Positions 1 to 22,220 of a stretch of DNA of 24,000 nt are shown here, piece by piece. This stretch comes from Planctomycetaceae bacterium. Lineage in GTDB: Bacteria > Planctomycetota > Phycisphaerae > UBA1845 > UTPLA1. The position numbers and the translations under genes were made by a program. Positions within the stretch are counted from its first letter, which is position 1. Each line of letters starts with the position of its first letter. The stretch covers positions 3,938,249-3,962,248 of the forward strand of contig CP030884.1 in the NCBI GenBank assembly GCA_006969385.1, read 5' to 3'. Below the pieces are notes generated by a model. The model ran no database searches. It worked only from the letters and a program-made list of their open reading frames with translations, and had not been told where the DNA came from.

Positions 1-685
1 TGGCATAGATCCGATTGTTGGTGGTATAGACCAAGCTCAGCGCGTTGCGCAAACCCGGTGCCCATACGCTGACATCGCGACCGCCCAGTTGATCGACAAT
101 ATTGCCGAAGACCTGGTCCATATTGAGATTGCCGGTGGCAGGATCGATGTAGGTAACGGCACCGTCGAAGTCGGGTCGCCACACTTCGGCTTTCAGAATT
201 GCCGCCGATAGCGGTGATTCGGGTACGTCGCCGATGTTGCAATTGGGCACGCCGGCGTTGGTGTTACCACCGCTGCAAATCAGCAGGTTGCCGAAGTTAT
301 CAACCGTCATGCCGTTAACGCTGTGATCGTGATTGGAGACCGGAAGGCCGGTGATAAGCGGTTCGGCCACATTGAAGTTGGGGCCGGTGAGTACCGAGAC
401 TTGCCCCGAGTACGGCGAGAAGCCTTCGAAACATGCGCCGCCGTTGGCGAATAGTTCGCCGTGGGCGACGTAAAGCTTGACGGTACCGGGCGCATCGAAC
501 GGGCTAGTGGTGATGCCGAGGATGCCCTTGTTGGACAGGGTCGTTAGCGTGTTGATCACTTGGGTATTCGTAACGTTGTAATTGTCGTCGAACGTGTAGG
601 CTTCGATCTTGCCGTTGATGTTGGCGACGTAGAGACGACCGTCGGCACCCCATGTAAGGGCCGTGGGTTTGGCGATCGCGGCGGC
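1..685 (-). other. Beta-propeller region (SGL / soluble quinoprotein sugar-dehydrogenase-like), aa 1795 to window edge; truncated
   Basis: KPTALTWGADGRLYVANINGKIEAYTF, ...GILGITTSPF...KLYVAHGE, ...SNHDHSVNGMTVDNFGNLLICSGGNTNAG. The blade-like periodicity is recalled from the GSDH/SGL family. Tentative. Confidence 0.4.
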
Positions 686-3600
686 GTCGGCGAGCGCGAA
701 GATTGTCGGTACGGGACCGGAGGTGGTGTACAAAAATTGCTTGACGTTGCTGACGCCGTTGGGTGTTTCAACGGTGAAGTCGATGATGCCGTCGCCCGGT
801 GGCGAAATGAAGTCGATGCGGCTGGGCGTGATCGTGAGGTCGGCGCCGGTGATATCCTGCGCGCCCCAATGCACGACGACTTGATCGGCGGGGAAGAAGC
901 CGAGGCCTGTTAGCGTGATGAGATTGCCGCCGGCATCAATGCCTTCGTCGGGGGCCGTGTTGATGATCGGTCGCAGGCCGGTTTGATCGTGGCTCAGCGC
1001 GGCAATCGAAATATCGATGATGGCACCGCCGCCGAGTTGCCATGCGAGCGCCAACGGTGCATCGGCGATGTCGTTGACGGCAAAGCGCGCTTCGAGCGTG
1101 TGGGCGCCGGTCGTCAGGTTGATCGGACCGCTGACGAGATTGCCGTCCACCCACAGGCGCGATTCGGTACCGCCGCCGCTATAGAAGGTGTAGTTACCCG
1201 CCTGTGTAACGTTAACGGTGGTATTGATGCGGGCAAGCACGTTGCCGGTGTAAGGCGAGTTACCCAGCGTAGCGTTGTCATCGTTGATGTAAAGCGTGCT
1301 GACCACTTCGCCAAAGTTTGCGGTAGCGGGCGGATTGTCGATCAGCGTTTGCGGATTGCCGCTGTAATAGCGCACCAGCGCACCGGGCACGGCGTCGGGG
1401 CCAACGACGCGGAAGGTTTCTTCCAACGCGAGCTGTTCCGGTGGAATGTTGTCATCGTAGATGGTCAGCCGCACCGTGTGTTCGCCGACAGGGAAGGTGT
1501 GCGTCGTATCCATCGTGGTCGCGAATATCTGACCGTTCTGAGTCCACTCGAACGCTTCCAATTCATGACCGAGTTCGTGGGTATGCGAATCGCGACCCAG
1601 CAGCGTCACGGGTTCGCTACCGTTCTGGTCGTAGTCGACGGTGACCGGATCGACATCGATGACGACGTGCAGGAACGGATGGCCGGTTTCTTCACCGCCG
1701 ATTCCGCTGAGCGACACGTGTTGCGGCGGGAAGTTGCCTCGAAATTCGACGTCAACGTTGTTGGCGATGGGCGTATTCGGTGCGAACAGCAAGCTGCCTT
1801 GCAGGTTAGCGCCGGGAGCCAAGTCGATATCGACGGGATGAATGACATCGCCAGCCGCGCCGGTTAAATCGAGGCCGGGCAGGCTGAGCGTGAAATCTTC
1901 GCCGCCGCCGTCGTTCACTTGAAACGCAATCGACGAGATGTTGATCGGTTCGCTGCCGTCGTTGGTGAGCGTGAGCGTTTGAACGAAGCCGGCTTGCCCC
2001 AGCGGCACGTGGCCCCAGGATACAAACGTCGGATCGAGCGTTAGTTCGCCCGCGCTGAGTTGCACGACTTCGATCGCCGAAATTTTCGGGTTCTGCGCGA
2101 CCTTCGCCAGTGCGATGACGATATCGCCGTCGAGCACTTGCAAGTCATATGTTTGAACCGTCGCGGTGCGGAAGCCCGCGACGGCGGCGATATCAAAGTT
2201 ATCGAGTACGAGGTTTCCATTCACGAACACATCGAAGACGCGCACGCCGGGGTTTTGCGCGCCGGACCAAATCTCGGCGAAGTGCATCCGCACGCGATAC
2301 GTGCCCGGATCGACCGGAAGCGTGAACACGAGGTTTTGCGTACTGCTTTCGATGAAGCGCTCGGATTGATAGAGCGTGTCGTTTTCGGTATTAGCAATGG
2401 CGGCGGTGCTGGTGAACGATCCGCCGCTATTGTAGAAGCCGGCATCGGACGACCAAAAGTTGCCGTCGCCATCGGTGTAATCCGGGCCGCCGGCGTTTAG
2501 GCGATAAATGACGAATTCGTCGTTGCTGCCGGTGTCTTCGATCAACGTGACGGTGACGCTGTCGGTTGCTGCGGGGCCGGGAATCGGTTGATGGCTGGTA
2601 TCGGCAAAGAACACCGTCACGGTGTAAGTGCCGGGAGGCAGCGGGCCGAGCGTGGTCGAACCGTTGAGGTTCATGCTCATCGTGGGCGCTTCGTCGTCGA
2701 GTTGGATATGTACGTGATTGACGGTGCTTAAATCACCCGTCGATGCCCACGACACGTCGATCGTGTCGCCAACGATCGTGCTGTTGTTGGCGGGGGTGGT
2801 GATGGTGATCGTCGGCGGCGTGGTAACCACTTCTTCGGTTGTAAACGACACGCTGTCGGTTGCTTCGGGATTGGTAAGCTCGCCATCGCCGCTATCCACG
2901 AGCGTTACCGTAAGCGTGTGATTGCCGGGCGCGACGTTATTGAAGGTGAGCGAACCCGTTAGATTGAGGCTCATCTGCATCGGTTCGTCATCGAGCTGCA
3001 CGTGCACATGGTCGACGCTGCTGAGGTCGCCGCTGGTCTGCCATTGTGCGATAAAGCTGGTGCCCATCAGTGTTGCGCCGTTGTTCGGCGCGAGAATGTT
3101 AACCGTCGGTGGCAAGGGTGCGGCGTCGCCGAGGATTTCGATGCCGGAGACTTTGGGGTTTTCAAAGTTATGAATGAACTCAATGTTGAGCGTGCCGTCG
3201 GTGACCGTCGTTTCAAACTCGTGCACATCGGCCGTGAGCGGGCCGACTTCCGCGACGATGTCGTAATCAGTAAGCACGGTGGCACCTTCGATGGCCACAT
3301 TCATCACGCGCCGCGCGGGTTGCGTCCAATACGTTTCGGCAAAGTGCAAACGCACGGTATAGCTGCCTGCTGCGACCGGGAACTCGAACATCATCTCAGG
3401 AGCCGACGATGAATCCCAACGGCAGGAACGATACAAGGGGTCGTTGTCGGTGCCGGCGATCTCGGTGCCGCTATTAACGACTGAGCTATTGCCGATGTTG
3501 TAATAACCGGCGTCGGATTCCCAGGTATTGCCAAGGTTGTCGGTGTAGGTGGGGCCGCCAACGTTGATGCGATACAAGGCATCGTCACTGCCGGGCTGCG

Positions 3601-6067
3601 GCACGAGCGTGACCGTGACGACCTTCGTCGCTTCCGGGTTGAGCAGCGGGGCTTGGCCGACATCCACCAATGAAACGGTGATCGTGTAAGTGCCCGGCAA
3701 GAGGGGCAACGCGACCATGCCGTTGAGCGGCAGCAGCGTTTGTGGGTTTTCTTCGTCGAGTTGTACGTGTACGTGCGCTGCGTCGGTGAGGTCGCCCGAG
3801 CTGTTCCACGAGACCATGATTTCGTCGCCGGTGATGGTGGCACCGTTGAATGGCGAAGTAAGCGTGAGCGTCGGCGGTTCGATCGGATTGCCGGTCGACG
3901 TGAAGCCGACGCTGTCATATGCCTCAACATTGGGCAGATTTTGATGGTTGGCATCAACGATGTTGATCTCAAAGGTATGCGAGCCGGGGGCCACGCCGGT
4001 GAACGTAAAGCTGCCGGTCAGGTCGGGCCGCATGATGATGCCGCCGTTATCGAGCCGCAGGTGCACGTGGTTGGCGTCGGTCAGATCGCCCGTGGTTTGC
4101 CATTGCACGGTGATGGCGTTGCCGTTGATCGATTCGCCTTCAGTTGGTGAGGTGATGTTGATTGTGGGCGGATCGGGCGTGTTGTCGACGGTAATGAATC
4201 CAACGGTATCAAACGCTTCGGCGTTGGGCAGGTCTTGATGATTGGCATCGACGAGATTGACTTCAATCGTATGCGCACCGGCCGCAACACCGCTAAAAGT
4301 GTACGAACCGCTGAGTGTGGGTCGCATGATGATGCCGCCGTTGTCGAGGCGCAAGTGAACGTGATTGGCGTTTACCAAATTGCCGGATGATTGCCACTGC
4401 ACGGTGACTTCGTCGACGTCGATCGATGCGCCTTCAGTCGGCGCGAGGATCGTGACGGTCGCCGGAAGGGGCGGTGCAGCGTCGGTCGTGAAGGTGACGA
4501 CCGCAGACGCTTCGGGGTTGGGCAGGTTTTGATGAACCGCATCGACGAGGTTTACCTGCAATGTGTGTGCACCAGCAGCGAGATCGGTGAACGTATAGCT
4601 GCTGTCGAGATTCATCTGCATCACAACGGGCCGATCATCGAGTTGCAGATGCACGTGGTTGACCTGCGACAAGTCGCCGGTGGATACCCATTGAACGGTG
4701 ACGGCCGAATCGGAGATGACCTGACCTTCGGTCGGGCTGATCACGTCGATGGTCGGCGGCGTCGGTTGCACCGGGGTATCGCTCAGGATTTCGATGGCCG
4801 AAACCTTTGGGTTCTCGAAGTCGTGCAGAAACTCGACATTCAACACGCCGTCGGACACGGTTGTTTCAAACTCGCGAATATCCGCGGTGAATGCGCCGAC
4901 TTCCGCAACAAGGTCGAGGCCGCTGATGACATTGGTGCCTTCGATGGCGACGCCAAAAACGCGGCGATTCGGCTGCGTCCAGTAGATCTCGGCAAAGTGC
5001 AGGCGCACGGTGTACTCGCCGTTGGTGACCGGGAACGAATACACCATTTCGCTGCCGGACGCCGAATCCCACCGACCGGTCTGGTAAATCGTATCGATTT
5101 CGGTGTTGGCAATTTGCGTAGCCGCGTGAACCTGCTCTTTTTTGCCGGTGTTGTAGAAGCCCATGTCGGACATCCACAAGTGGCCGTTCTGATCGACATA
5201 GTTCGGGCCGCCGGCATTGACGCGATAGTAAGCGGTGACCGGCGCGTTGAGTGCGATCTGCGTGATGCAGGTTACGCTGCAACCGTTGTTGTCGGTGACG
5301 TCAACGCTATAGAAGCCGTCTTGATCGATCGTGACGCTGTTGTTGGTTTCACCGCTGTGCGGCCAGAAGTAAGACTCGTAACCGGGCGTGGCAGTCAGTA
5401 GCACATCGGTCTGCTGATAGGTGGGTGCGATCACAAGGGAGGGCGGCAGGGCCGAGTTGGTATCGATCGTGATTTGATCGGCACCTCCAAAACCATCGCT
5501 GACGGTCACGATGAATTGATCGACTGGCTCGTCGACGTCGGCGGCTTGATAACAAAGCGTGACTTGCCCGCCGACGCTTCCGTTTACGAAACTTGCCGTG
5601 CCGAATTCGGGTGGCGTGGCGATCGACCAAATCAGATTCTCGGTATCACCCAGATTCGGGTCGACGGCTTCGAGTTGAATCGCGTTGCGCGCGCTGGGGC
5701 ACGTATCGCAGAAAACATTGTTGAGTAGCGCAATATCGCCCGTCGTGATCTGCGGGGCGAAGTTACACGGGGTGCCCATGAGAATGCCGACGAAGCCGGG
5801 GATGTCGTCGACCGTGATGAGATCGTCGGCGGCGCACGGATCGCCGGGCGAACCGATATCGGCGGCGTCGAGTTCGTCCGCCGTCGGTGTTTGCGGATTC
5901 ACAATCAGCTCGATGAAGCTCGGGATATCCGCGCCGTTGGTTTCGCCGTCACCGTTGGTATCGCCCGGTTCGAATGCGCCACACGAGGCGGCGCACATCA
6001 GGACGAGCGCGCAGCACAAGCGCGCGGTGGTCGACCACGTATTGATTAAATGATCTCTAAGCGGCAT
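1..6067 (-). CDS. Giant secreted/lipoprotein-type multidomain glycan-binding protein, 5' end complete, 3' end beyond window (>=2022 aa)
   Basis: Absent from the ORF track because no stop lies in the window. Hand reverse-complement translation from ATG 6067..6065 gives 2022 sense codons plus 1 nt down to position 1. Frame is coordinates 1 mod 3; spot checks: Val973 = 3151..3149, Gln1336 = 2062..2060. N-terminus MPLRDHLINTWSTTARLCCALVLMCAASCGAFEPGDTNGDGETNGADIPSFIELIV. The last residues read are ...RNALSLVYTTNNRIYA. Coherent domain grammar throughout (see sub-features). Every other minus-strand ORF listed in this span is in a different frame. Confidence 0.85.
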   Translation of the reverse strand, partial: MPLRDHLINTWSTTARLCCALVLMCAASCGAFEPGDTNGDGETNGADIPSFIELIVNPQTPTADELDAADIGSPGDPCAADDLITVDDIPGFVGILMGTPCNFAPQITTGDIALLNNVFCDTCPSARNAIQLEAVDPNLGDTENLIWSIATPPEFGTASFVNGSVGGQVTLCYQAADVDEPVDQFIVTVSDGFGGADQITIDTNSALPPSLVIAPTYQQTDVLLTATPGYESYFWPHSGETNNSVTIDQDGFYSVDVTDNNGCSVTCITQIALNAPVTAYYRVNAGGPNYVDQNGHLWMSDMGFYNTGKKEQVHAATQIANTEIDTIYQTGRWDSASGSEMVYSFPVTNGEYTVRLHFAEIYWTQPNRRVFGVAIEGTNVISGLDLVAEVGAFTADIREFETTVSDGVLNVEFLHDFENPKVSAIEILSDTPVQPTPPTIDVISPTEGQVISDSAVTVQWVSTGDLSQVNHVHLQLDDRPVVMQMNLDSSYTFTDLAAGAHTLQVNLVDAVHQNLPNPEASAVVTFTTDAAPPLPATVTILAPTEGASIDVDEVTVQWQSSGNLVNANHVHLRLDNGGIIMRPTLSGSYTFSGVAAGAHTIEVNLVDANHQDLPNAEAFDTVGFITVDNTPDPPTINITSPTEGESINGNAITVQWQTTGDLTDANHVHLRLDNGGIIMRPDLTGSFTFTGVAPGSHTFEINIVDANHQNLPNVEAYDSVGFTSTGNPIEPPTLTLTSPFNGATITGDEIMVSWNSSGDLTDAAHVHVQLDEENPQTLLPLNGMVALPLLPGTYTITVSLVDVGQAPLLNPEATKVVTVTLVPQPGSDDALYRINVGGPTYTDNLGNTWESDAGYYNIGNSSVVNSGTEIAGTDNDPLYRSCRWDSSSAPEMMFEFPVAAGSYTVRLHFAETYWTQPARRVMNVAIEGATVLTDYDIVAEVGPLTADVHEFETTVTDGTLNIEFIHNFENPKVSGIEILGDAAPLPPTVNILAPNNGATLMGTSFIAQWQTSGDLSSVDHVHVQLDDEPMQMSLNLTGSLTFNNVAPGNHTLTVTLVDSGDGELTNPEATDSVSFTTEEVVTTPPTITITTPANNSTIVGDTIDVSWASTGDLSTVNHVHIQLDDEAPTMSMNLNGSTTLGPLPPGTYTVTVFFADTSHQPIPGPAATDSVTVTLIEDTGSNDEFVIYRLNAGGPDYTDGDGNFWSSDAGFYNSGGSFTSTAAIANTENDTLYQSERFIESSTQNLVFTLPVDPGTYRVRMHFAEIWSGAQNPGVRVFDVFVNGNLVLDNFDIAAVAGFRTATVQTYDLQVLDGDIVIALAKVAQNPKISAIEVVQLSAGELTLDPTFVSWGHVPLGQAGFVQTLTLTNDGSEPINISSIAFQVNDGGGEDFTLSLPGLDLTGAAGDVIHPVDIDLAPGANLQGSLLFAPNTPIANNVDVEFRGNFPPQHVSLSGIGGEETGHPFLHVVIDVDPVTVDYDQNGSEPVTLLGRDSHTHELGHELEAFEWTQNGQIFATTMDTTHTFPVGEHTVRLTIYDDNIPPEQLALEETFRVVGPDAVPGALVRYYSGNPQTLIDNPPATANFGEVVSTLYINDDNATLGNSPYTGNVLARINTTVNVTQAGNYTFYSGGGTESRLWVDGNLVSGPINLTTGAHTLEARFAVNDIADAPLALAWQLGGGAIIDISIAALSHDQTGLRPIINTAPDEGIDAGGNLITLTGLGFFPADQVVVHWGAQDITGADLTITPSRIDFISPPGDGIIDFTVETPNGVSNVKQFLYTTSGPVPTIFALADAAAIAKPTALTWGADGRLYVANINGKIEAYTFDDNYNVTNTQVINTLTTLSNKGILGITTSPFDAPGTVKLYVAHGELFANGGACFEGFSPYSGQVSVLTGPNFNVAEPLITGLPVSNHDHSVNGMTVDNFGNLLICSGGNTNAGVPNCNIGDVPESPLSAAILKAEVWRPDFDGAVTYIDPATGNLNMDQVFGNIVDQLGGRDVSVWAPGLRNALSLVYTTNNRIYA
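722..973 (-). other. IPT/TIG-like domain, aa 1699-1782
   Basis: PIINTAPDEGIDAGGNLITLTGLGFFPADQVVVHWGAQDI...RIDFISPPGDGIIDFTVETPNGVSN. Pattern P.I..[IV].P..G...GG..[IV]T[IL.]G.GF. Confidence 0.5.
1013..1387 (-). other. PA14-like carbohydrate-binding domain, aa 1561-1685
   Basis: GALVRYYSGNPQTL...ARINTTVNVTQAGNYTFYSGGGTESRLWVDGNLV...GAHTLEARF. Typical PA14 pattern: G[LW]...Y+ ... G.Y.F....DD...L.[IV]DG..V. Confidence 0.55.
1403..1666 (-). other. PKD-like domain, aa 1468-1555
   Basis: LEAFEWTQNGQIFATTMDTTHTFPVGEHTVRLTIYDDN resembles the PKD pattern W.......G....H.[FY]...G.Y.V.L.V.D. Confidence 0.4.
1697..2047 (-). other. Ig-like beta-sandwich (choice-of-anchor-D / ASH-like), aa 1341-1457
   Basis: LTLDPTFVSWGHVPLGQAGFVQTLTLTNDGSEPINISSIAF...DLAPGANLQGSLLFAP...VSLSGIG. 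Pattern L.P..[LV].[FW]G.V..G......L.L.N.G...L.I. Confidence 0.4.
2060..2518 (-). other. Malectin-like carbohydrate-binding domain 3 (aa 1184-1336), more diverged
   Basis: IYRLNAGGPDYTDGDGNFWSSDAGFYNSGG...LYQSERF...YRVRMHFAEIWSGAQNPGVRVFDVFVNGNLVLDNFDI...NPKISAIEVV. Confidence 0.7.
2543..3112 (-). repeat. Two further tandem 98-aa His-x-His repeats, R5-R6 (aa 986-1175)
   Basis: PPTVNILAPNNGATL...GDLSSVDHVHVQLDD and PPTITITTPANNSTI...GDLSTVNHVHIQLDD. HVH at aa 1020-1022 and 1118-1120, the same 98-aa register as R1-R4. Confidence 0.8.
3128..3583 (-). other. Malectin-like carbohydrate-binding domain 2 (aa 829-980)
   Basis: LYRINVGGPTYTDNLGNTWESDAGYYNIG...LYRSCRWDS...YTVRLHFAETYWTQPARRVMNVAIEG...DGTLNIEF...NPKVSGIEIL. 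Confidence 0.75.
3602..4759 (-). repeat. Four tandem 98-aa (294-nt) His-x-His Ig-like repeats, R1-R4 (aa 437-822), DUF4399-like
   Basis: Repeat starts PPT at aa 437 and 633 (R1, R3), PAT at 535 (R2), PPT at 731 (R4). Invariant HVH at aa 471-473, 569-571, 667-669 and 765-767. R2 and R3 share ANHVHLRLDNGGIIMRP. The identical 20-mer cgcatgatgatgccgccgtt occurs at 4029..4048 and 4323..4342, exactly 294 nt apart. Confidence 0.85.
4778..5236 (-). other. Malectin-like carbohydrate-binding domain 1 (aa 278-430)
   Basis: YYRVNAGGPNYVDQNGHLWMSDMGFYNTG...IYQTGRWDS...YTVRLHFAEIYWTQPNRRVFGVAIEG...DGVLNVEF...NPKVSAIEIL. This is the remembered malectin signature. Confidence 0.75.
5774..5965 (-). other. Dockerin-like / EF-hand calcium-loop pair (aa 35-98)
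   Basis: GDTNGDGETNGADIPSFIELIV matches the dockerin repeat pattern D.N.DG..N..D(I)..F. A second, degenerate copy is ADIGSPGDPCAADDLITVDDIPGFVGILMG. Confidence 0.5.
5981..6067 (-). other. Signal peptide with possible lipobox (AAS|C29) of the giant protein
   Basis: Basic n-region (R4, R16), hydrophobic LCCALVLMCAA, then S-C-G. Only a loose match to the L-[AS]-[GA]-C lipobox. Confidence 0.5.
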
Positions 6068-6228
6068 TCGTTCCCCGTCACGAAAAGGCCACAAGTCTGC
6101 GCGGATTGTCCCCCACAAACCGCACCGATTATACTCAGCCGAAATTGCGATTAGAAGCCTCATTATCGGTTGGGCGGGGTATTTCGTTGCTTATCGCCCG
6201 TTCGCCGAATCCGCCAGCGGGAGGTCTT

Positions 6229-8439
6229 ATGTTTCCGAATTCGAAGCCAAGCCGGTTGCCTTGTTTAATGCCGATCGGTCGCCGATTTATTGCGTTTTTT
6301 GCGGTCTTGGTGCCGATGGCCGTTTTCGGCTGTGGCGATGGCGCGTCCTCATTTCCGAATCTGATCGGGGACGTGGTGATTGAAGGCCGCGTCCGAGATA
6401 GCAGCGGCTTCGGGATTCCGGGCGTAATTGTGGCGGCCAGCGGCGTGCGCGAGGCCGGCGTGACGGACCCGGCGGGTCGTTATCAATTGGCGGTTCCGGG
6501 CGGTTGGTCGGGGACGATTCGGCCGCAAAAACAAGATTTTGTGTTTTCGCCAACGGAAAAACTGATGGATGCCGCAGGGCAAGATGGCGTCGATTTCGTA
6601 GCAACGATGCGCTCGACGCCCACGACATACAATGGCCATCAAGTCGATTTATGCGGCGACCCGAATTCGAGTGAAAGCGCCGCTACGTCTGAGTTGATTA
6701 TCGAAGCGCCGCCGGTCGTGCGTATTTCCAACGGTGGCTCGTCGGCGCAGGTGCGCTTGGATGGTTCGGGAAGCCGCTTGCCCGATGGCAGTCGCATCGA
6801 ATGGCGCAATGGCGGCGTGCCGATTGCGTTTGATTTGACGGCAACCGTCGATTTGCCAGTGGGCCGTCATGATGTGGAGTTGGTGTCGATTCAGCCGAAC
6901 GGCACGGAGCGCTCGCGGTCGGTAATTATCAACGTGATTACGGAAGGGCCGCAGACGATTTACGTCGATGCGGATCATCCGTCGGCAAACGATGGTAATA
7001 CGGGCACGGCCGACACACCGCTGGCCACGATACAAGCGGGCGTGGATAAGGCGCGAGCGGGTGATGTCGTCGTGGTGCGCTCGGGAACATATTACCGAAA
7101 TCATCCGTCGGTGAATCGACCGGTGGTGCTGATGGAGAATCGACACGGTACGGCGGAGCAGCCGATCACGATCACCGCCGATACGGGCGCGATGCCGCGC
7201 GTGACGGGCATGCGACCGGGGGCGGAACGCGGTAATACGGGCTGGCGCATCGTCGATTCGTCGTGGATTGTGATCAACGGTTTTCGGTTTGAGAACTTGA
7301 ACGGTGTCGGGTTGGATATCGAAGCGAGTTCACCGGGGGCGACGCATCATATCGACGTGTTGGAATGCAGTGCCGAGCGCTGCAGCCAAGGACCGAACAC
7401 ATTTGTCGGTGCGCTGCGCGCCGTGGGGCCGGTGCGGAACGTCTCGTTCAAGAACTGTATGATCTCCAATAGCAGTAGCGGCATCGTGTTGCGCGAAGCG
7501 CCGGTGCAAACGCGCGAAACGGCAGCCGTGCCGCCCAAGGCGGGCAACAACGCGCCGGGTGCGCCGGGCGGGCGGTACAGCAGCGACTTGGCCGAGTCGG
7601 CCTGGGCCGATTGGTGCGGGTGGGATCAGATCGCGCCGAAACATTGTGTTATCGAGAATTGTCTGAGCTTTAACAACCGCCAAGTGCCCGAACATAGCGA
7701 TGGCTTCGGCACGCGCTACGCGACGCACTGCATCATCAAAGACAACATCGCTTTCGGTAATGCCGACGACAACTTCGACCTGCTGGGCGGCACGCACTTA
7801 ACGGTGACAGGTAATATTGCGTTTAACGGCAATCCGGAAAACACGGAGGCGGGCGACGGCAATGGGATAAAGGTCGGTGTGCGCGGCGGCTTGGATTGTT
7901 TGGTCGCATTTAACATTTCGTTCGACAACCGCCGCATGGGGTTGGACATGGGCGATACCGAGCGCGGGCGCGTGTTTCATAACACGATCGTAAATAATGG
8001 TGCCGGCCATCCGAACGGATTCGGCATGTGGTTCGAGGGCGGGCGCTCAAGTGCGGGCCATCAGGTGATGTTTAACATCTTGCAGGGCAACGGGCTAAAC
8101 ACGTCGCGCGGTGATTACGGCGCGGCGCGGCACGTGAGCTTCGCGGCCAGCGATTACAACAGCATGAGCGATAGCCACAGCCATAACTTCGCCGGTCCGA
8201 GCGGTAGCCACGATCGCGTGGGGGACAATGTTGAATTTGTCGCCGGGGATGCCGCGGTAAGCCCCGTCTTTGTTGAGGGGATGTCGATTGCACAACGCAT
8301 CAATCTGGTGCGGCAGCAAGTGCGCAACAAATTTATGCTCGCGCCGGGCAGCCCCTTACGCGGATCGGCGACGGTGGTTGGTGGCGTGAATGACGGCGTG
8401 ACGAGGCCGGGGGGAAATTGGGGCGCGGTGCAGGAGTAA
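6229..8439 (+). CDS. Right-handed parallel beta-helix repeat lipoprotein (pectate-lyase fold) with N-terminal carboxypeptidase-regulatory-like and PKD/Ig-like domains
   Basis: The track gives a TTG start at 6106. I prefer ATG 6229, which is preceded by GGGAGG (6219..6224); ATG 6268 is an alternative. Signal plus lipobox: MFPNSKPSRLPCLMPIGRRFIAFFAVLVPMAVFG|C. CarboxypepD_reg-like: IEGRVRDSSGFGIPGVIVAASGVREAGVTDPAGRYQLAVPGG. Beta-helix cap: IYVDADHPSANDGNTGTADTPLATIQAGVDKARAGDVVVVRSGTYY. PbH1-type turns: NIAFGNADDNFDL, GNIAFNGNPEN, NISFDNRRMGLDM, HNTIVNNG. Confidence 0.85.
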   Translation: MFPNSKPSRLPCLMPIGRRFIAFFAVLVPMAVFGCGDGASSFPNLIGDVVIEGRVRDSSGFGIPGVIVAASGVREAGVTDPAGRYQLAVPGGWSGTIRPQKQDFVFSPTEKLMDAAGQDGVDFVATMRSTPTTYNGHQVDLCGDPNSSESAATSELIIEAPPVVRISNGGSSAQVRLDGSGSRLPDGSRIEWRNGGVPIAFDLTATVDLPVGRHDVELVSIQPNGTERSRSVIINVITEGPQTIYVDADHPSANDGNTGTADTPLATIQAGVDKARAGDVVVVRSGTYYRNHPSVNRPVVLMENRHGTAEQPITITADTGAMPRVTGMRPGAERGNTGWRIVDSSWIVINGFRFENLNGVGLDIEASSPGATHHIDVLECSAERCSQGPNTFVGALRAVGPVRNVSFKNCMISNSSSGIVLREAPVQTRETAAVPPKAGNNAPGAPGGRYSSDLAESAWADWCGWDQIAPKHCVIENCLSFNNRQVPEHSDGFGTRYATHCIIKDNIAFGNADDNFDLLGGTHLTVTGNIAFNGNPENTEAGDGNGIKVGVRGGLDCLVAFNISFDNRRMGLDMGDTERGRVFHNTIVNNGAGHPNGFGMWFEGGRSSAGHQVMFNILQGNGLNTSRGDYGAARHVSFAASDYNSMSDSHSHNFAGPSGSHDRVGDNVEFVAGDAAVSPVFVEGMSIAQRINLVRQQVRNKFMLAPGSPLRGSATVVGGVNDGVTRPGGNWGAVQE

Positions 8440-8982: not shown

Positions 8983-9615
8983 TCAATCCGCAAAGGCATG
9001 GGCAGATTCGTTGCCCTGCAGATCCGCCCATTGCACTGCGATGAGGATGACCGAGAAGGCCAACACCCCCGCAGGTAGGGCGAAGTCGTAACTCGTGGTG
9101 AGCGAACTGATAGCTGCACCGACGCCGTTGGTCGGGTGGGCCGCAAGAATCGCTAAGGCAGCCGTAATGAGACAGCCGCCGTGAAGGCCGGTGACGAGCA
9201 CCGTCGTCTGACGGTACATCGTGAGGCCGAGTGCCATGCATAGGCCGGCACCGCAAATCGCGCTACCGATGCGTATCTCGAGCACCGGCGTGAGATCGAC
9301 CACCACGATCAACGTCGCGAGAAAGCCGATGACGCCGAAAAAGCCGAGCGCTGCGCGTTTCTCGAAGAGCCACGCACAAATCGGTAGCACCAATAACACG
9401 GAAATGCTTAAGACGATCGGTGGAATGGGTAAGGCATCGCGAAAGGCGCTGTCATGCGACGCGAACGCCAAAAGGCCCGCCAGTACGATCGTGTCGAGCA
9501 AGATCAGCAAGCGCACGATGCGCCAGCCGAAGAAGCCATACACGCAACCGGCCAGCGCGAGTAAAACCGCAAACCCGGTACCCAGATGGGCAAAATATTG
9601 AGTGATGTATTGCAC
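8983..9615 (-). CDS. Uncharacterised polytopic inner-membrane protein (about 6-7 TM), last gene of the dcw-strand run
   Basis: 210-aa ORF with a GTG start at 9615..9613, preceded by GAGAGGAAG. Hydrophobic segments: GTGFAVLLALAGCVYGFFGW, LLILLDTIVLAGLLAFA, IVLSISVLLVLPICAWLF, LGFFGVIGFLATLIVVV, GSAICGAGLCMALGLTMY, VLVTGLHGGCLITAALAILAA, LPAGVLAFSVILIAVQW. No family identified with confidence; the topology loosely recalls DUF4203/TMEM198-like proteins. Confidence 0.7.
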   Translation of the reverse strand: MQYITQYFAHLGTGFAVLLALAGCVYGFFGWRIVRLLILLDTIVLAGLLAFASHDSAFRDALPIPPIVLSISVLLVLPICAWLFEKRAALGFFGVIGFLATLIVVVDLTPVLEIRIGSAICGAGLCMALGLTMYRQTTVLVTGLHGGCLITAALAILAAHPTNGVGAAISSLTTSYDFALPAGVLAFSVILIAVQWADLQGNESAHAFAD

Positions 9616-9691
9616 GGGTCTTCCTCTCGTTGCGCCGCCAGATGCAAGCGAGGTTCACCATGCCTCCTAATCCTTACACGTTGAATAAAAC

Positions 9692-10552
9692 TTACGATCC
9701 AGAATCGTCGCCGTCCGAGGAAGGCAGGATTTTTTTCGGGAAACGCGCTTCCTTGGCCTGCCATATCAGACCCACGATCCAAAGCCCGAGAACAACGTAA
9801 GCGGGGACGTGCGGTTGGGCGAAGATCGCATCGCGCATATCGGGCCATTTGCAGCAAATCAGGGTGCAGCCCGCCAGCACGGATAGGTTGGCCCCGAGAA
9901 AGCCGAGCCAAAGGATGGCAAACGTTTGCAGCGCCCAATAGGCAAGCGCCGCGCCGAGGACAGCGGCGGAGATGGGCAGTATCCACGCGAAGAAATCGAA
10001 ATCGCGCACCGTCGCGGCGATGTTCTCACCGATACGCGACAGTTGCGTGCGCCAATCGGGGTTCTGATTGTTTTGCTGTTGTTCCGGCGTGGGCAATTGA
10101 ATGCGTGCCTTCTCAACGTCGACGGGCCCGTTCATTTGCTCGGGCTGCGGCAGGTACGAGCTGAGATCGCCGCGACCGAGCTGCAGCGTTAGACCGATTG
10201 CAAATAGTACGACGACCGAGCCGGTGGCGAGCCAGAGTTTGTATGTTTTGTAAGCCAGTGCCGTAGAGGCGATGGACGTTATGGCAATCGTGATTGGGCC
10301 GGGCAGGCCGAACGCGTTAGACAGGTAATACCCGACGTAGCCGCCGAACAGCAGCGCGAAGGCCATTACGATTTGGCGCTCGAACTTACCACCGCGAAAG
10401 ACGAGACCGATTCCGAGACCGACCGCGAAGAGGGCACCGACGATCACTTCAGGCGTGGCCGCGATGGGCGGCACGCAGTGCTCCATCAGTTGGCGGAACG
10501 CCTCGATCCAACGTTCGCTTGCGTTTTCGGTGGTCGTTTGTGCGAGCAACAT
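9692..10552 (-). CDS. Uncharacterised polytopic inner-membrane protein (about 7 TM) with a central Gln/Asn/Pro-rich loop; sits immediately after ftsQ-like
   Basis: 286-aa ORF, ATG at 10552, weak RBS. TM candidates: VIVGALFAVGLGIGLVF, IVMAFALLFGGYVGYYL, ITIAITSIASTALAY, LWLATGSVVVLFAIGLTL, FFAWILPISAAVLGAALAYWAL, FAILWLGFLGANLSVLAGCTLICC, AYVVLGLWIVGLIWQA. Soluble loop at aa 126-186 (9995..10177): ...LPQPEQMNGPVDVEKARIQLPTPEQQQNNQNPDW... Confidence 0.7.
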   Translation of the reverse strand: MLLAQTTTENASERWIEAFRQLMEHCVPPIAATPEVIVGALFAVGLGIGLVFRGGKFERQIVMAFALLFGGYVGYYLSNAFGLPGPITIAITSIASTALAYKTYKLWLATGSVVVLFAIGLTLQLGRGDLSSYLPQPEQMNGPVDVEKARIQLPTPEQQQNNQNPDWRTQLSRIGENIAATVRDFDFFAWILPISAAVLGAALAYWALQTFAILWLGFLGANLSVLAGCTLICCKWPDMRDAIFAQPHVPAYVVLGLWIVGLIWQAKEARFPKKILPSSDGDDSGS

Positions 10553-10685
10553 TCCATTGATCCAATCGTGGGGCCGACGCCGGCCCCGCGTGGGAGATTA
10601 TATGGTAAACGCAGGAGATGGCTGCGGCTCTCGCCGTGGATATTGCCTTGACGACCGAATGTCGGCGGCGACGCAGTTACCCGGA

Positions 10686-11660
10686 TTAGTGCGTGCCCGC
10701 CGCATAATTGGGGCCGGCCGTCTGGATCGAATCGCTGAACGAGCGGATATCGACGAACGGGCGATTGATGTCGATGCGACCGTAATGGTCGTAAAGCCGC
10801 CGCAAGAGGGCGAGTTTTTGCCCGGCCGAGTTCTCGACCCCCATCTCTTCATGCGGCGCACGGCCCCACCAAATGCGCGAACCGGGGCGGTCCGTTGCGA
10901 TGACCAGATGCGGCTGTGTCTGCGTGATGCGACCCTGATAATTCTCCACGTTGATGCTGGCGACCTGATCGCGATAAGGCTGGCGCAGCAACATGCGGGT
11001 GAGTTCGAGCCCGGTTTGCAAATCTTCGCCGGGCCAGTAATGGCCCACGACGGGCTCGGGGGCCTCAACGCCGCGAATGAGAATGCCCACGGGCGGCGAC
11101 CATTGACTGACGCGATATTGCCCCGGCAGACGGATGCCTTCGTCATCGACGCGATAGAAGTACTCGCCCCAACTCACGAATGCGCGCGGATAGCGGAACG
11201 TGCAGTTGACGCTGATGCGGCCGTTGGGGCGCACGATGACGCGATTGACCTTCTTGATCCAAGCGATCTCATCGACCGAGCGCGGACCGGTTTGGCTGAG
11301 CGTGCTCGCGATGCGCTGGGCCAGCGAATCGTCTAGCACGCGGTCGTTGGCCGTAAGCGCGATAGCACTTTCGAGGCCGCGAAAGACCGAGTCGTAGGAA
11401 TCGGCCTGCAAAAAGGGCGGCACGTCCTCCCAATCAATCCAGAGTTCCACCCGCTCGAAATGCGTTAGACGATGAACGTGGCTGCGCAGACTGTAAAGCC
11501 CCCATATGCAACCGGCACCGACGGCGCTGACGAGCAACGCCACCAGCGCCGCCCGCCGAACGGGGCGATAGTCTTCCGATGCCAGTCGCGCGACAATCTC
11601 AAACGCGGCGGGCGGGTCGGACGCCTTCTTCTTGTTTCGTTTCTTTTTAGCCGCCGGCAA
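10686..11660 (-). CDS. ftsQ: FtsQ-like bitopic cell-division protein (polybasic N-terminus, one TM, POTRA-like plus FtsQ-type periplasmic domain)
   Basis: 324 aa, TTG start at 11660 preceded by GGGAGGAAG 8 nt upstream. MPAAKKKRNKKK, then TM AALVALLVSAVGAGCIWGLY. The segment IAWIKKVNRVIVRPNGRISVNCTFRYPRAFVSWGEYFYRVDDEGIRL fits the POTRA/FtsQ pattern (PW[IV]..a.V.R..P..l.[IV]...R.P.A.......vD..G). Lies directly after ddl, as in dcw clusters. Sequence is divergent, hence moderate confidence. Confidence 0.6.
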   Translation of the reverse strand: MPAAKKKRNKKKASDPPAAFEIVARLASEDYRPVRRAALVALLVSAVGAGCIWGLYSLRSHVHRLTHFERVELWIDWEDVPPFLQADSYDSVFRGLESAIALTANDRVLDDSLAQRIASTLSQTGPRSVDEIAWIKKVNRVIVRPNGRISVNCTFRYPRAFVSWGEYFYRVDDEGIRLPGQYRVSQWSPPVGILIRGVEAPEPVVGHYWPGEDLQTGLELTRMLLRQPYRDQVASINVENYQGRITQTQPHLVIATDRPGSRIWWGRAPHEEMGVENSAGQKLALLRRLYDHYGRIDINRPFVDIRSFSDSIQTAGPNYAAGTH

Positions 11661-11706
11661 CGGTCGGACTTCCTCCCAGGCGATTGGCTGTTATTGCTGC
11701 GCGACG

Positions 11707-12693
11707 TTACTGGCCTTTGAGCGCGGCAAAGCGCCGGTCGATGGCCATGTTGACGATGCGCAGGCATAAATCCGCCATCTCGATGCCGGCATGGGCTGCG
11801 GCCTTGGGAAGCAGCGAATGGGACGTCAGGCCGGGAATCACGTTGATTTCCAGCAGGCGTGCATCGCCGATTTGATCGTCCACACGCCAATCGACGCGGG
11901 AAAAATCGCGACAGCCGAGCAATTTGTGCGCCGCCAAGCTCCAATCGACGATGCGGCGCTGCAGGTCATCGGGCAGATCGATGTCGAATCCGTACTCTGT
12001 ATCTTCATCGACATATTTGGCCTCATAATCGTAGAAGTCCCGCTTGGTGCGGATTTCGATCATGGGAAGCGCCGTTTCGCCGAGGATGGAGACCGTGATT
12101 TCCTTGCCGGGCACGAACTGCTCGATCAGGCATTGGTCGTATTTTTCGAGTGTGAGTTCGAGAGCGGGCCGCAACTGAGTGACGTCGCGGACAATGTGAC
12201 AATAGAGGCTGCTGCCCTCAGCAACGGGTTTGACGACGACGGGCAGATTCCAGGCAGCCATCGCTTCGCGGATGTTGCCTTTGGTGACGACGGCGTAGCG
12301 GGCCGTGGGGATGCCGGCCTCCAGGAATTTGGCTTTGGCGGCGGCTTTGTTCATGGCGAGTGCGCAACAGTCAGGCCCCGAGCCAGTGTAGGCGAGACCG
12401 CGCTGGTGGAGAATGCGCTGAACCTGCCCGTCTTCGCCGAACGTACCGTGCAAAGCGATGAAGACGCAGTCGACATCGCGGGCAAGGGCACCGAGATCGT
12501 CCGGCGCGATGTCATCGACGGCGACGTCATGGCCGCGACTGAGCAGGGCGTCAGCGACGGCACGGCCGCTATTCAGGCTGACGTCGCGTTCGCCACCGGG
12601 CCCGCCGGCAAGAACGGTGATCGTGAGTTTGTCGGTAGCGCGCCGCGACCGAATCGAGGGTTGGGCGGCGTTGGTATTGGTGTGGGCGTCCAT
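11707..12693 (-). CDS. ddl: D-alanine--D-alanine ligase
   Basis: 328 aa. ITVLAGGPGGERDVSLNSG; FIALHGTFGEDGQVQRILHQRGLAYTGSG; PVVVKPVAEGSSL; LLEINVIPGLTSHSLLPKAAAHAGI. ATG 12693 with GAGGAAG 9 nt upstream. Confidence 0.9.
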   Translation of the reverse strand: MDAHTNTNAAQPSIRSRRATDKLTITVLAGGPGGERDVSLNSGRAVADALLSRGHDVAVDDIAPDDLGALARDVDCVFIALHGTFGEDGQVQRILHQRGLAYTGSGPDCCALAMNKAAAKAKFLEAGIPTARYAVVTKGNIREAMAAWNLPVVVKPVAEGSSLYCHIVRDVTQLRPALELTLEKYDQCLIEQFVPGKEITVSILGETALPMIEIRTKRDFYDYEAKYVDEDTEYGFDIDLPDDLQRRIVDWSLAAHKLLGCRDFSRVDWRVDDQIGDARLLEINVIPGLTSHSLLPKAAAHAGIEMADLCLRIVNMAIDRRFAALKGQ

Positions 12694-12738
12694 GCTATGC
12701 AGCTTCCTCGCGCCTCCGAGCGCGGTGGCGTATGGCGG

Positions 12739-13638
12739 TTACCAAATCTTGACTTCGGGCTCGAGTTCGACACCAGAGCTTTCAAATACGCGCGTGCGAA
12801 TCGTTTGGATCAATTCGCGCACGTCGCGCGCCGATCCACCACGATCGGCCATGGCGAAGTTGGCGTGTTGCTCGCTGACGAAAGCACTACCGATGCGAAA
12901 ACCCTTGAGGCCCGCGCGGTCGATGATGCGCCCGGCCGAGTCACCTTCGGGATTGCGAAAGATGCAACCGGCACTGTGGCCCGACATGGCGGGTTGGGTT
13001 TGCTGTTTGTAATCCCAAATCTCGCGGTAGCGTTGCTTGAGCGCGTCGGAGTCGGTCGGCGCAAGCTCGAATCGAACGCCGACAACAAACCGTTCGCCGA
13101 TGTCGCTTTGGCGATAGGCAAACCCCATGCGGTCGTGTTCGATCGTTTCGATGTCGCCGTTACTGTTCATCAGTTCGACGCTGCGCACGGCCATGGCGAT
13201 GTCGCCATACTTTCCGCCGCAGTTCATCGCGATGCCGCCGCCGACGGTGCCGGGGATGCCGGCGAGTTGTTCGAGACCGGCCATGCCGGCGCGCACGGCG
13301 GCGCGGGTGAGTTCGGTCATATCGACGCCGCCACCGGCATATCCGGCGTCGATGTCGAAAGAAGCAAAGTCCCCTTGGTCGAGGCGCAACACGACACCGC
13401 GCACACCTTCGTCGGGTACGAGCAGATTGGCACCGAGGCCGAAGATGCGCAGTGGCATGTCGGCGGCGCGGGCCGCGCGAATGACGGCCCGGAGTTCGTC
13501 GACGTTGCGGGGACGAATGAGATACTCCGCCGGGCCGCCGAGGCGAAACCACGTGAGCGGCGCCAGCGGCACATCGCGCGCGACGATCTCAGGCGGCAAG
13601 TCGGTGAAGCAGGTCATCGGTAACTTTCCACACATCAC
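12739..13638 (-). CDS. murB: UDP-N-acetylenolpyruvoylglucosamine reductase
   Basis: 299 aa. FRLGGPAEYLIRP; LRIFGLGANLLVPDEGVRGVVLRL; GIPGTVGGGIAMNCGGKYG; GCIFRNPEGDSAGRIIDRAGLKGFRIGSAFVSEQHANF. The start is either ATG 13638 or ATG 13617 (MTCFTDLPP...). Both overlap the murC 3' end. Confidence 0.9.
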   Translation of the reverse strand: MMCGKLPMTCFTDLPPEIVARDVPLAPLTWFRLGGPAEYLIRPRNVDELRAVIRAARAADMPLRIFGLGANLLVPDEGVRGVVLRLDQGDFASFDIDAGYAGGGVDMTELTRAAVRAGMAGLEQLAGIPGTVGGGIAMNCGGKYGDIAMAVRSVELMNSNGDIETIEHDRMGFAYRQSDIGERFVVGVRFELAPTDSDALKQRYREIWDYKQQTQPAMSGHSAGCIFRNPEGDSAGRIIDRAGLKGFRIGSAFVSEQHANFAMADRGGSARDVRELIQTIRTRVFESSGVELEPEVKIW

Positions 13639-15070
13639 CAGCCCCCATGGTAAGGATCACATCCTCGGGTTGGGCGTGCGTTTTCAGATAAGCGGCGATT
13701 TCGGGCAACGTCGGAATGTAATCGGCGTTGCCGCCGTGGGCATGGACGCGGTCGACCAAGTCCTGAGCGCAGACGGCGTCGCGCATGGTTTCGGAATCGC
13801 GCACGAAGTAAATCTCGGGGATCAGCAAGCGATCGGCGAGGCCGAAGCTCTTGGCGAAGTCATTCAACAGAAAACGCGTGCGCGAATGCTGGTGCGGTTG
13901 AAACACCACCCACAGGCGCCGACCGACGTAGCGTTCTTTGACGGCTTTGAGCGTGGCTTGAATTTCGGTGGGGTGATGACCGTAGTCATCGAGCAGCGTG
14001 ATGCCGCGCACTTCGCCGACGTGCGTCATGCGACGCTTGGCACCTTCAAACGTGTTGAGAGCGGCGGCGATCTGCTGCGTTTCGACGCCGGCGCGGTGTG
14101 CCAGGGCCGTTGCCACCAACGCGTTGGCGGCTTGATGGCGACCGATTAAGCCGCCGAGTTGGGCGCGGAACAAATGCTCCCCATTGAAGATCACATCGAA
14201 TTCGTAGTTGCCATTCTTATGGATCGGGTCGGCGGCTTGCCAGATAACGCCTTTACCGAAACCGAACGTTTGCACTTTGCAGCGCACCTCCGAAATGACT
14301 TCGGCAACGTGGCGGTCTTCACCGTTGGCGATCAGCAGGCCGTCTTCGGGAACGAGCGAAGCGAAACCGCGAAAGGCTTCGATGATGCCGTTGATGCTGT
14401 CGAAGCAGTCGAGATGGTCTTCTTCGATATTGAGAATCGCCGCGTGCTTGGGCGAGAGATTCAAGAAGGAATGATCGAACTCGCAAGCTTCGACGACCAT
14501 GTCGGGGCCGTTACCCACGCCCGAGCCGCCGCCTAGCTGCGGCACGTGCGCGCCGACCACGAACGTTGGATCGTGACCGGCCTGGCGCAGGATGTATGAA
14601 AGTAGTGCGGTCGTGGTGCTCTTACCGTGCGTGCCCGCTATGGCATACGACGTGCGGTAGCGCATCACCTGGCCGAGCATTTGCGAATACTTGATGCAGG
14701 GGATGGTGCGGCGGCGCGCTTCAACGAGTTCGGGGTTCTCAGGTTTGATCGCGGCCGAGTACACCACGAGGTCGCAATCGGAAGCGATGTTCATCGGTGC
14801 TTGGCCGATGCGAACCGTCGCGCCCATTTCTTCGAGCGGGGTTTGACCGTTGAACTCGCGCAGGTCGGAACCGCTGACGATCGCACCGCTGCGAATCAAT
14901 ACGCCGCCGAGACTGGACATGCCGCAGCCGCCGATGCCGATGAGGTGGATGCGTTTGGCAGCGAAGGGGCTGGACCAATGTTCCTGATGGCGACGACCGT
15001 TTTGCCGGGCGAATAGCTTGGAGATGCCATTGGATTTTTGTTGGGAATCGCTCGGAATGGATGTCGACAT
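13589..15070 (-). CDS. murC: UDP-N-acetylmuramate--L-alanine ligase
   Basis: 493 aa. IHLIGIGGCGMSSLGGVL; IAGTHGKSTTTALLSYIL; EACEFDHSFL; LDDYGHHPTEI. ATG 15070 preceded by GGAGG 10 nt upstream. About 20 aa longer at the N-terminus than I recall for E. coli MurC. Confidence 0.92.
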   Translation of the reverse strand: MSTSIPSDSQQKSNGISKLFARQNGRRHQEHWSSPFAAKRIHLIGIGGCGMSSLGGVLIRSGAIVSGSDLREFNGQTPLEEMGATVRIGQAPMNIASDCDLVVYSAAIKPENPELVEARRRTIPCIKYSQMLGQVMRYRTSYAIAGTHGKSTTTALLSYILRQAGHDPTFVVGAHVPQLGGGSGVGNGPDMVVEACEFDHSFLNLSPKHAAILNIEEDHLDCFDSINGIIEAFRGFASLVPEDGLLIANGEDRHVAEVISEVRCKVQTFGFGKGVIWQAADPIHKNGNYEFDVIFNGEHLFRAQLGGLIGRHQAANALVATALAHRAGVETQQIAAALNTFEGAKRRMTHVGEVRGITLLDDYGHHPTEIQATLKAVKERYVGRRLWVVFQPHQHSRTRFLLNDFAKSFGLADRLLIPEIYFVRDSETMRDAVCAQDLVDRVHAHGGNADYIPTLPEIAAYLKTHAQPEDVILTMGAGDVWKVTDDLLHRLAA

Positions 15071-15249
15071 GCGGGAGCCACCTCCGTGTGGGGCAAGATG
15101 CTAATTGAGCGGTTGGCTTCGTCCGTAGCGTGCCGAGGGCGACGCGAATTCCGCTCGATTTTGCAGGAAACCATCCTATGCGGTTACGAACCGCACGGGC
15201 AAGGGGTTCAGTGGCGCAGGAATTGCGTGAGCCCTCTGTTAGACGTCGT

Positions 15250-15314
15250 AATTCACAAGTGCCGCCTGCATCGAATATCGGGAAGGCGTGCGCATGCGCT
15301 TGAACCTGTGAATT
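15250..15314. promoter_or_regulatory. Candidate operator: the same 8-mer as an inverted pair, AATTCACA-N49-TGTGAATT, between murG and murC
   Basis: aattcaca at 15250..15257 and tgtgaatt at 15307..15314. The perfect palindrome gcgcatgcgc lies between them at 15290..15299. Confidence 0.45.
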
Positions 15315-15337
15315 GTTCGCGGCCAAACCGCGCGATG

Positions 15338-16477: not shown

Positions 16478-16624
16478 AGGGATATTCGCTCCTCCACCCG
16501 GTAGGTTGTTGCCCGCAATTGCCGCACCGCCAAAAGGATGTTAGCGGATGAGGCCGGGGGCTTCAAAGCAGGCGTGTTGTAGGAGTGTTGCCGTGTTAGA
16601 CGCCGTGATGGATGGAGAAGTTGC

Positions 16625-17845: not shown

Positions 17846-17898
17846 ACGAGTCCCCTATGTGCAAATCTTGCTGCTACTTTGGATATCGGCGGCACGGC

Positions 17899-19035: not shown

Positions 19036-19099
19036 TGCGAGCTTCCTTGGTTGGCACGTGTTGCCGCAACCGACGGTCCCCTTTGTGGTGATATCGGCG

Positions 19100-20497: not shown

Positions 20498-20498
20498 G

Positions 20499-22031: not shown

Positions 22032-22139
22032 AGAATTTGCATCTTATGTTGGCGAGTGTCTTGGCGAAATGCCGGCGACCAACATTACTATCCCCCGAGA
22101 GCGAATGGGTTCGTTGAATCTTGCAGTAATTGAACCGCA

Positions 22140-22210: not shown

Positions 22211-22220
22211 TCGCACGCCA

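Follow-up and report, generated by a model that had tools for sequence, protein, structure and literature searches.

The left quarter of a 24,000-nucleotide stretch of the genome of a Planctomycetaceae bacterium (GenBank assembly GCA_006969385.1, contig CP030884.1, positions 3,938,249 to 3,962,248; here called the window and numbered from its first base) is one real gene that a simple list of open reading frames (ORFs) hides. Judged from the open frame and an ungapped ortholog, positions 2..6067 of the minus strand are the 5′ four-fifths of this gene, the first 2022 of ~2573 codons, and the plus-strand ORFs listed there are to be discarded. The product is an unusually large new member of a widespread, experimentally uncharacterized family, and to that extent its annotation is solid and not surprising. 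It carries three malectin domains, six Ig-like Big_7 repeats and, toward its C terminus, a beta-propeller with the fold of pyrroloquinoline quinone (PQQ) sugar dehydrogenases. We think it probable, if not assured, that this is a giant surface protein in which the malectin domains bind glycan multivalently and the propeller pocket oxidizes or binds that glycan, paired with a beta-helix lipoprotein encoded next door.

A giant gene at the edge of the window

A sequence-only reading of this DNA had claimed a minus-strand frame, open from the ATG at 6067..6065 to the left edge of the window, and this was borne out. Read from ATG 6067 down to base 2, the frame has 2022 codons and zero stops, with Val at residue 973 and Gln at residue 1336 as that reading had it; the remaining five frames of 1..6067 contain 18-138 stops each, and across 2000 shuffled versions of this sequence the longest open stretch had a mean of 150 codons and a maximum of 429. 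The frame is indeed missing from the ORF list because the lister omits ORFs that run off the end of the sequence, which is a rule of the tool and not biology. The accompanying statement about phase holds as well: the listed minus-strand ORFs of at least 100 amino acids (aa) start at 3972, 5217 and 5282 (0, 0 and 2 mod 3), and 6067 is 1 mod 3.

A homology search with the translated frame returned P0001, a 2573-aa ortholog ~92% identical across the whole query. Its locus, L001, aligns with the window codon for codon with zero gaps, at 91.9% amino acid and 88.5% nucleotide identity. The 700 nucleotide differences are distributed 119/53/528 over codon positions 1/2/3, and the changed codons comprise 483 synonymous and 163 nonsynonymous ones; this pattern and the synonymous excess argue that the minus frame is under purifying selection. 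The GC content of the gene by codon position is 0.59/0.44/0.73 (positions 1/2/3), and its third positions are 50% C versus 23% G. The five plus-strand ORFs named in the sequence-only reading (983..1867, 2060..2500, 3002..3412, 3740..4150 and 4391..5401) exist, the longest being 336 aa, and were rightly taken for antisense shadows, since the two longest (983..1867 and 4391..5401) each gain three extra stops in the ortholog. The commonest residues in these ORFs (V, R, A, G and D) are those expected for the antisense of a gene rich in GC at third codon positions. A rival view, in which the long frame arose by chance or is a pseudogene and the plus-strand ORFs are the true genes, has nothing beyond the existence of those ORFs in its favor, and we regard it as already refuted by the stop-free run set against the shuffle maximum, by the selection acting on the minus frame, by the stops gained in the ortholog, and by the strong domain matches in the minus-frame product.

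The full length and the C terminus, left open in the sequence-only reading, could be taken from P0001, which runs 551 residues past the window edge with the remainder of the propeller, an IPT/TIG (TIG) domain and a 311-aa tail. By the length of this ortholog, the stop codon should lie ~1.65 kb past the window's left edge; in L001, corA follows the giant gene. An exact-match search with the neighboring gene product, in two alternative starts, gave no leftward extension of the contig. The closest match in a genome record, from the Phycisphaerae metagenome-assembled genome (MAG) Co_bin.211, is 94% identical and ends at residue 1711. The encoded protein is very acidic (pI 4.05; 240 Asp plus Glu versus 54 Lys plus Arg).

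Malectin domains, Ig-like repeats and a conserved cassette

A domain scan of the protein gave significant matches to Malectin, Big_7 and PA14; all domain coordinates below refer to the minus strand. The malectin signature recognized in the sequence-only reading proved to be present in three copies: Pfam Malectin (PF11721) matched three stretches at 280 bits against a cut-off of 23 (E 7.7e-84). Malectin domain 1 (residues 277-431; 4775..5239) aligns over 151 residues with Xenopus malectin (2k46; E 5e-15); domain 2 (residues 827-982; 3122..3589) is 59% identical to domain 1; and domain 3 (residues 1184-1338; 2054..2518), the most divergent copy, also matches Malectin_like at 1.5e-18. The stretches YQT(E/G)R(Y/W) and FAE(V/I)Y(F/W) align with malectin; as to which malectin residues contact ligand, we rely on an assumption carried over from nuclear magnetic resonance work on malectin. 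Animal malectin of the endoplasmic reticulum (ER) (2k46 and 2jwp) and the plant malectin-like receptor kinases have clear sequence homology to each of the three domains. Unlike ER malectin, the protein described here is bacterial, predicted to be extracellular, and triplicated in this domain, and a Glc2-N-glycan ligand would not be expected for it.

Between the malectin domains lie Big_7/DUF4399 Ig-like repeats of ~95 aa each, which the sequence-only reading had not listed. Four stand in tandem after domain 1 (residues 435-820; 3608..4765) and two more after domain 2 (residues 984-1174; 2546..3118), so that Pfam Big_7 matches six stretches in total (E 2.8e-36), with pairwise identities of 35-66%. 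Every repeat (2546-4765) has an H-V-H-x-x-L-D motif. Tandem Repeats Finder detected no DNA repeats in 1..6100, as the DNA encoding these units has diverged too far. The number of units varies among relatives. The window protein and P0001 are arranged Mal-B4-Mal-B2-Mal, where B and its number denote the Big_7 repeats, P0002 is arranged Mal-B3-Mal-B2-Mal, and other orthologs are arranged Mal-B3-Mal or Mal-B2-Mal; three malectin domains and six Big_7 repeats thus mark the window protein and its near-identical relatives, and other relatives have two malectin domains and two or three repeats. By this comparison of sequences, the window gene is the most expanded form of the architecture among the orthologs compared, and the variation suggests that it grew in modules, through duplication of a unit made up of a malectin domain and repeats.

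A cassette that follows the malectin domains is conserved across phyla: an anchor-D-like domain, a PKD-like domain, PA14, TIG, the propeller, a second TIG, and two beta-sandwiches. It begins with a Cep192_D4/choice-of-anchor-D-type beta-sandwich (residues 1342-1458; 1694..2044) that scores 27.4 bits, below the cut-off of 35.5, and is conserved in 20 of the 120 listed homologs; it was another domain absent from the earlier list. Next comes a divergent PKD-like domain of 86 residues (1463-1548; 1424..1681), identified by alignment and by a profile match, with invariant L-H and S-H-T-H and with S-H-T-H-E-x-G in place of the usual S-x-D-x-D-G. The PKD signature proposed earlier fared unevenly: the window copy has no Pfam match, PKD_4 matches 3 of 18 homologous segments, and the profile matches the PKD domains of the collagenase ColH at E 0.003-0.03. 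The L-H and S-H-T-H motifs here and the H-V-H of the Big_7 repeats are possible metal sites. In the window, SHTH (1577-1588) continues into HELGH, which resembles the HEXXH of zincins, in an extension that is not conserved. A zinc-protease HEXXH was ruled out: homologs differ at the E and at the last H, and the motif sits in a beta-sandwich.

The PA14 domain spans residues 1549-1690 (998..1423), with a Pfam core at 1586-1645. As the sequence-only reading had supposed, PF07691 is matched above its cut-off of 24, at 25.4 bits with the whole protein and 27.7 bits with the segment, although only the central 60 residues align. The IPT/TIG-like domain that follows (residues 1691-1780; 728..997) had also been named, and its status is mixed: the window copy is borderline (20.8 bits over residues 1709-1780 versus a PF01833 cut-off of 20.9), while a second TIG in the part beyond the window, seen in the ortholog, is clear (37.2 bits, E 2.9e-9), and PF01833 appears in the precomputed annotation of orthologs. 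The protein ends, again by the ortholog, in a C-terminal module of ~311 aa (L001 16787-17719) that finishes ...VVVELN with no hydrophobic anchor. NCBIfam found no sorting signal of the PEP-CTERM, T9SS or LPXTG types in the ortholog tail. Of the 120 listed homologs, 40 have the tail module, some of them in two or three copies (up to three in P0084). Its model (predicted local distance difference test [pLDDT], 91.9) consists of two beta-sandwiches; the module belongs to no Pfam family and matches no PDB sequence, and Foldseek gave only generic Ig/FN3-type matches, with a template-modeling (TM) score of ~0.2.

The architecture is present in Planctomycetota, Verrucomicrobiota, Cyanobacteria, Bacteroidota and others, and the automatic NCBI names of relatives are "malectin domain-containing carbohydrate-binding protein" and "IPT/TIG domain-containing protein." P0003 and P0010 (Phycisphaerae MAGs) and P0016 (Tichowtungia aerotolerans) have the same cassette, from malectin through the 310-aa C-terminal module, at 49-58% identity. 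The Phycisphaerae relatives also share the dockerin-like N terminus and the beta-helix neighbor described below.

A sugar dehydrogenase-type propeller with conserved active-site residues

The C-terminal propeller, which the sequence-only reading did not list, could make the giant protein an enzyme and not only a binder. Residues 1790-2022 (2..700, minus strand) cover the first ~60% of a six-bladed beta-propeller of GSDH type, ~385 residues long, assigned from the Pfam match of the ortholog, a structural model and hhalign. The complete ortholog propeller scores 41.5 bits against Pfam GSDH (PF07995; cut-off, 25), and 20 of 23 family members match; each half of the propeller alone stays below threshold, the window part scoring 14.2 bits. 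A single-sequence PDB search with the propeller returned nothing useful, and a profile was required: one built from 23 propeller sequences finds soluble quinoprotein glucose dehydrogenase (sGDH) at E 6e-9. The AlphaFold (AF2) model of the ortholog propeller has a pLDDT of 85.9 and a predicted TM score (pTM) of 0.89, and its best Foldseek matches are 3a9g, 7cdy, sGDH, 2ism, Asd (2g8s), 3das and AA12, with top hits at E 1e-11 to 2e-14.

Alignment by hhalign to sGDH 1c9u (the sequence used is identical to 1c9u_A) had a probability of 97%, at 15-18% identity to sugar dehydrogenases. Asp143-His144 of sGDH aligns with Asp1914-His1915 (nucleotides [nt] 328..323), Arg228-Asn229 aligns with Arg2007-Asn2008 (nt 49..44), QGPN aligns with NGPN, and a YGxPN motif also lines up with the sGDH active site. 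In sGDH, His144 is catalytic, serving as the general base, and the Arg-Asn pair makes contact with the PQQ quinone oxygens (PMC6881789). Across the 23 sequences, down to 30% identity, His146, Arg238, Asn239 and Asn256 (alignment numbering) are invariant. Alignments and predicted structure together establish the propeller fold and, within it, the conserved His and Arg-Asn.

The same six-bladed fold is found in the soluble PQQ sugar dehydrogenases (Acinetobacter calcoaceticus sGDH, 1c9u; Escherichia coli Asd, 2g8s; Pyrobaculum 3a9g), with which the window propeller shares the aligned Asp-His, Arg-Asn, GPN and YGxPN (PMC6881789), and in fungal AA12 pyranose dehydrogenases. In fungal CcPDH the propeller is likewise fused to carbohydrate-binding modules (CBMs). 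Unlike the sugar dehydrogenases, the present propeller is embedded in a protein of ~2570 aa. Among 1.84 billion representatives, 1,876 clusters at 50% identity have this propeller type at E <= 1e-30, nearly all of them within proteins of 1,000-6,000 aa.

Signal peptide and N-terminal modules

Comparison of the N termini of 13 homologs placed a signal peptide at residues 1-29 (5981..6067, minus strand), ending ...LMCAASC. Cys29 is kept in all Phycisphaerae orthologs, in the context AASC in the window protein and PASC or PTSC in the others. The PROSITE lipobox pattern PS51257 matches the distant homologs P0013 and P0014 and the product of the divergent neighboring gene. Lipidation of the giant protein at Cys29, via a noncanonical lipobox, is plausible from these sequences.

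The signal peptide is followed by a dockerin-like calcium-loop module (residues 33-105; 5753..5971, minus strand), whose first loop is the canonical DTNGDGETNGAD and whose second is atypical, with a conserved Cys pair. Dockerin_1 (PF00404) is matched by 10 of 10 orthologs at E<=1 (best, 4.8e-5), and a profile of the module retrieves a dockerin of solved structure, 2ccl_B (E 4e-4), across both repeats. Between this module and the first malectin domain lie a Big_9-like Ig segment (residues 135-202; Big_9 at 20.6 bits, below cut-off) and a second beta-rich segment (residues 205-275) with no family match in Pfam; together they occupy 5243..5665 of the minus strand and are conserved in Phycisphaerae orthologs only. 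NCBIfam matched nothing in the N-terminal 280 aa.

A divergent beta-helix partner and a conserved leader

Head to head with the giant gene, on the plus strand at 6268..8439, lies a gene whose 723-aa product is a lipoprotein: behind a canonical lipobox, AVFGC, it has a CarboxypepD_reg domain and a right-handed beta-helix resembling Pel9A (Beta_helix, 30.6 bits). The listed ORF, 6106..8439, begins too early, as the signal peptide of this partner starts at Met 6268. The partner protein has no PDB sequence relative. The two genes stand head to head in all eight Phycisphaerae loci compared (the window, L001, L002, L081, L080, L082, L083 and L084); the beta-helix gene is not in the flanks of homologs from other phyla.

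The region between the two genes bears on the start codon of the giant gene, for no stop interrupts the frame between ATG 6067 and a further in-frame ATG upstream, at 6163. P0002 (L081 10001-10096), from the position equivalent to 6163, and P0005 (L082 3001-3066) are called from upstream in-frame starts, with N-terminal extensions of 22-32 aa. A start at ATG 6163 would make six of the eight differences from L081 synonymous. It was ruled out by a perfect TATAAT that is kept across the seven loci compared and upstream of which ATG 6163 sits, and by a 1-nt indel between TATAAT and the start codon in L083, which indicates that the stretch before ATG 6067 is noncoding. This leaves ATG 6067 as the best start, and the comparison suggests that the extensions called for P0002 and P0005 are annotation artifacts covering a conserved leader.

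On this comparative evidence, 6068..6172 of the minus strand is a conserved promoter and leader, made up of a CCGATAA box, TATAAT, and then ~60 nt able to form a hairpin around GGGGGA. Immediately upstream of ATG 6067, these 105 nt show 1-2 differences from L001 and L002 and 8 from L081, whereas third codon positions differ by 27-28% from L001/L002 and by 27-44% when L081 is included (P <= 3e-4 even against the overall coding sequence rate). Invariant elements across the seven loci are CCGATAA, GCT, G-GTATAATCG, and GGGGGA flanked by complementary arms; CCGATAA, GTATAATCG and the GGGGGA hairpin persist even where orthologs have 56% protein identity, and the hairpin stem has one compensatory G-C to C-G change. 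The leader has no Rfam match, and its predicted fold is not significantly more stable than those of shuffles (z, -1.7). It may be a regulatory element shared by the divergent gene pair.

Proposed function and alternatives

Planctomycetota are known for glycan degradation. In the mechanism that we propose, the giant protein would be exported by its N-terminal signal peptide and held at the surface through a lipidated Cys29 or through the dockerin-like module, both being putative routes. Three malectin (CBM57-type) domains and PA14, spaced by six Big_7 repeats, would then bind polysaccharide multivalently, and the domain arrangement may bring the propeller pocket onto the bound glycan, where it would oxidize sugar units or reducing ends or merely bind them. 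The protein would work in concert with the divergently encoded Pel9A-like beta-helix lipoprotein, whose gene presumably shares the conserved promoter/leader region. In a more specific form, which we advance as speculative and rather unlikely, the protein would be a surface-tethered polysaccharide oxidoreductase, the propeller holding PQQ or another cofactor in a remodeled pocket and oxidizing malectin-captured glycan together with the beta-helix partner. If so, bacteria would have an equivalent of the fungal CBM-linked AA12 enzymes, with a new CAZy-type auxiliary activity, and the propeller would represent ~1,900 uncharacterized clusters found almost only in giant, CBM-rich proteins.

Several results weigh against the proposed function. 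PS51257 fails in the window protein and its ten closest orthologs. The sequence-only reading had called the product cell-surface, lipid-anchored and glycan-binding; secretion and glycan binding look likely, and the lipid anchor, at a conserved Cys without the PROSITE lipobox, is putative. The dockerin-type calcium loops that it had also proposed are borderline, favored by the orthologs and the 2ccl_B match, with the window module itself scoring 16-16.9 bits with Dockerin_1, under the cut-off of 22.9. In the propeller, Lys377, Arg406 and Arg408 of sGDH, which hold the PQQ carboxylates, line up with Asn, Asp and an invariant Leu, in a part that lies beyond the window and where the hhalign probability is only 4.5%; equivalents of these residues were not found. 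Only ~60% of the propeller is inside the window. The giant protein has no cytochrome or other electron-transfer domain, in which it again differs from the sugar dehydrogenases. HHIP, a nonenzymatic animal binder, belongs to the same propeller superfamily by fold, although it ranks under the bacterial dehydrogenases in Foldseek, with lower scores. Searches of the literature on malectin together with PQQ, Phycisphaerae, or CBM57 in Planctomycetes turned up no experimental study of this architecture.

Some of these points lend themselves to a purely adhesive role, in which the molecule only captures glycan and tethers cells or substrates and the propeller is a noncatalytic lectin-like or protein-binding module, as in HHIP. 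Adhesins typically have many Ig-like spacers and CBMs, as this protein does; the fold matches include the propellers of HHIP and NHL; conservation of the C-terminal PQQ-binding residues could not be detected; and no redox partner domain is present. Such a role would leave unaccounted for the His, Arg-Asn, (N/Q)GPN and YGxPN that line up with the sGDH active site, the four residues invariant in 23 sequences, and the best fold matches, all of which are enzymes; we consider it a serious possibility but a somewhat doubtful one.

The dockerin-like module raises a different alternative, that of a cellulosome-like subunit that plugs by its N terminus into a cohesin scaffold with no lipid anchor, the beta-helix neighbor belonging to the same complex. 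Retention of the module in 10 of 10 orthologs, the profile match to solved type-I dockerins, and a cohesin domain in one distant homolog, P0072, are consistent with this, but the Dockerin_1 score is under the Pfam cut-off, the second repeat is atypical, and the beta-helix neighbor has its own lipobox and no dockerin. No cohesin is known in this genome, where none was sought. Taking these together, we find a cellulosome-like arrangement improbable.

A surface protein that binds glycan through malectin domains and oxidizes or binds it in the propeller, together with the beta-helix lipoprotein, remains our preferred account. The leads for follow-up are the conserved catalytic-type residues of the propeller, the strict divergent pairing with the beta-helix lipoprotein in Phycisphaerae, and a leader conserved far better than synonymous sites; together, propeller residues, gene pairing and leader define a small, testable polysaccharide-processing unit.

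Genomic surroundings

In the window, L001 and L081, the gene pair comes directly after murG-murC-murB-ddl of a division and cell wall (dcw) cluster, and this adjacency might be read as a sign of a cell envelope or division-associated structural protein. In L080, L082, L083 and L084, however, the same pair is flanked by DUF1801 and cysNC-type genes and is not near any dcw genes, which largely refutes a division role and makes it, in our estimate, very improbable. The pair is kept despite different flanks, so that the pairing, and not dcw adjacency, is the conserved feature; the adjacency is lineage specific.

The cell wall and division cluster of the window (8983-23978, minus strand) encodes a penicillin-binding protein transpeptidase, two Mur ligases, and the products of mraY, ftsW, murG, murC, murB and ddl. 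After ddl come a 324-aa protein at the place of ftsQ and then two membrane proteins (286 and 210 aa); none of the three has a Pfam hit. No ftsA or ftsZ follows the cluster in the window, and there are three Mur-ligase genes versus the classical four. Nearly all real genes of the window are on the minus strand. GC skew on the plus strand is positive in every 1-kb window of 1-24000 (0.01-0.17), and the cumulative skew climbs steadily.

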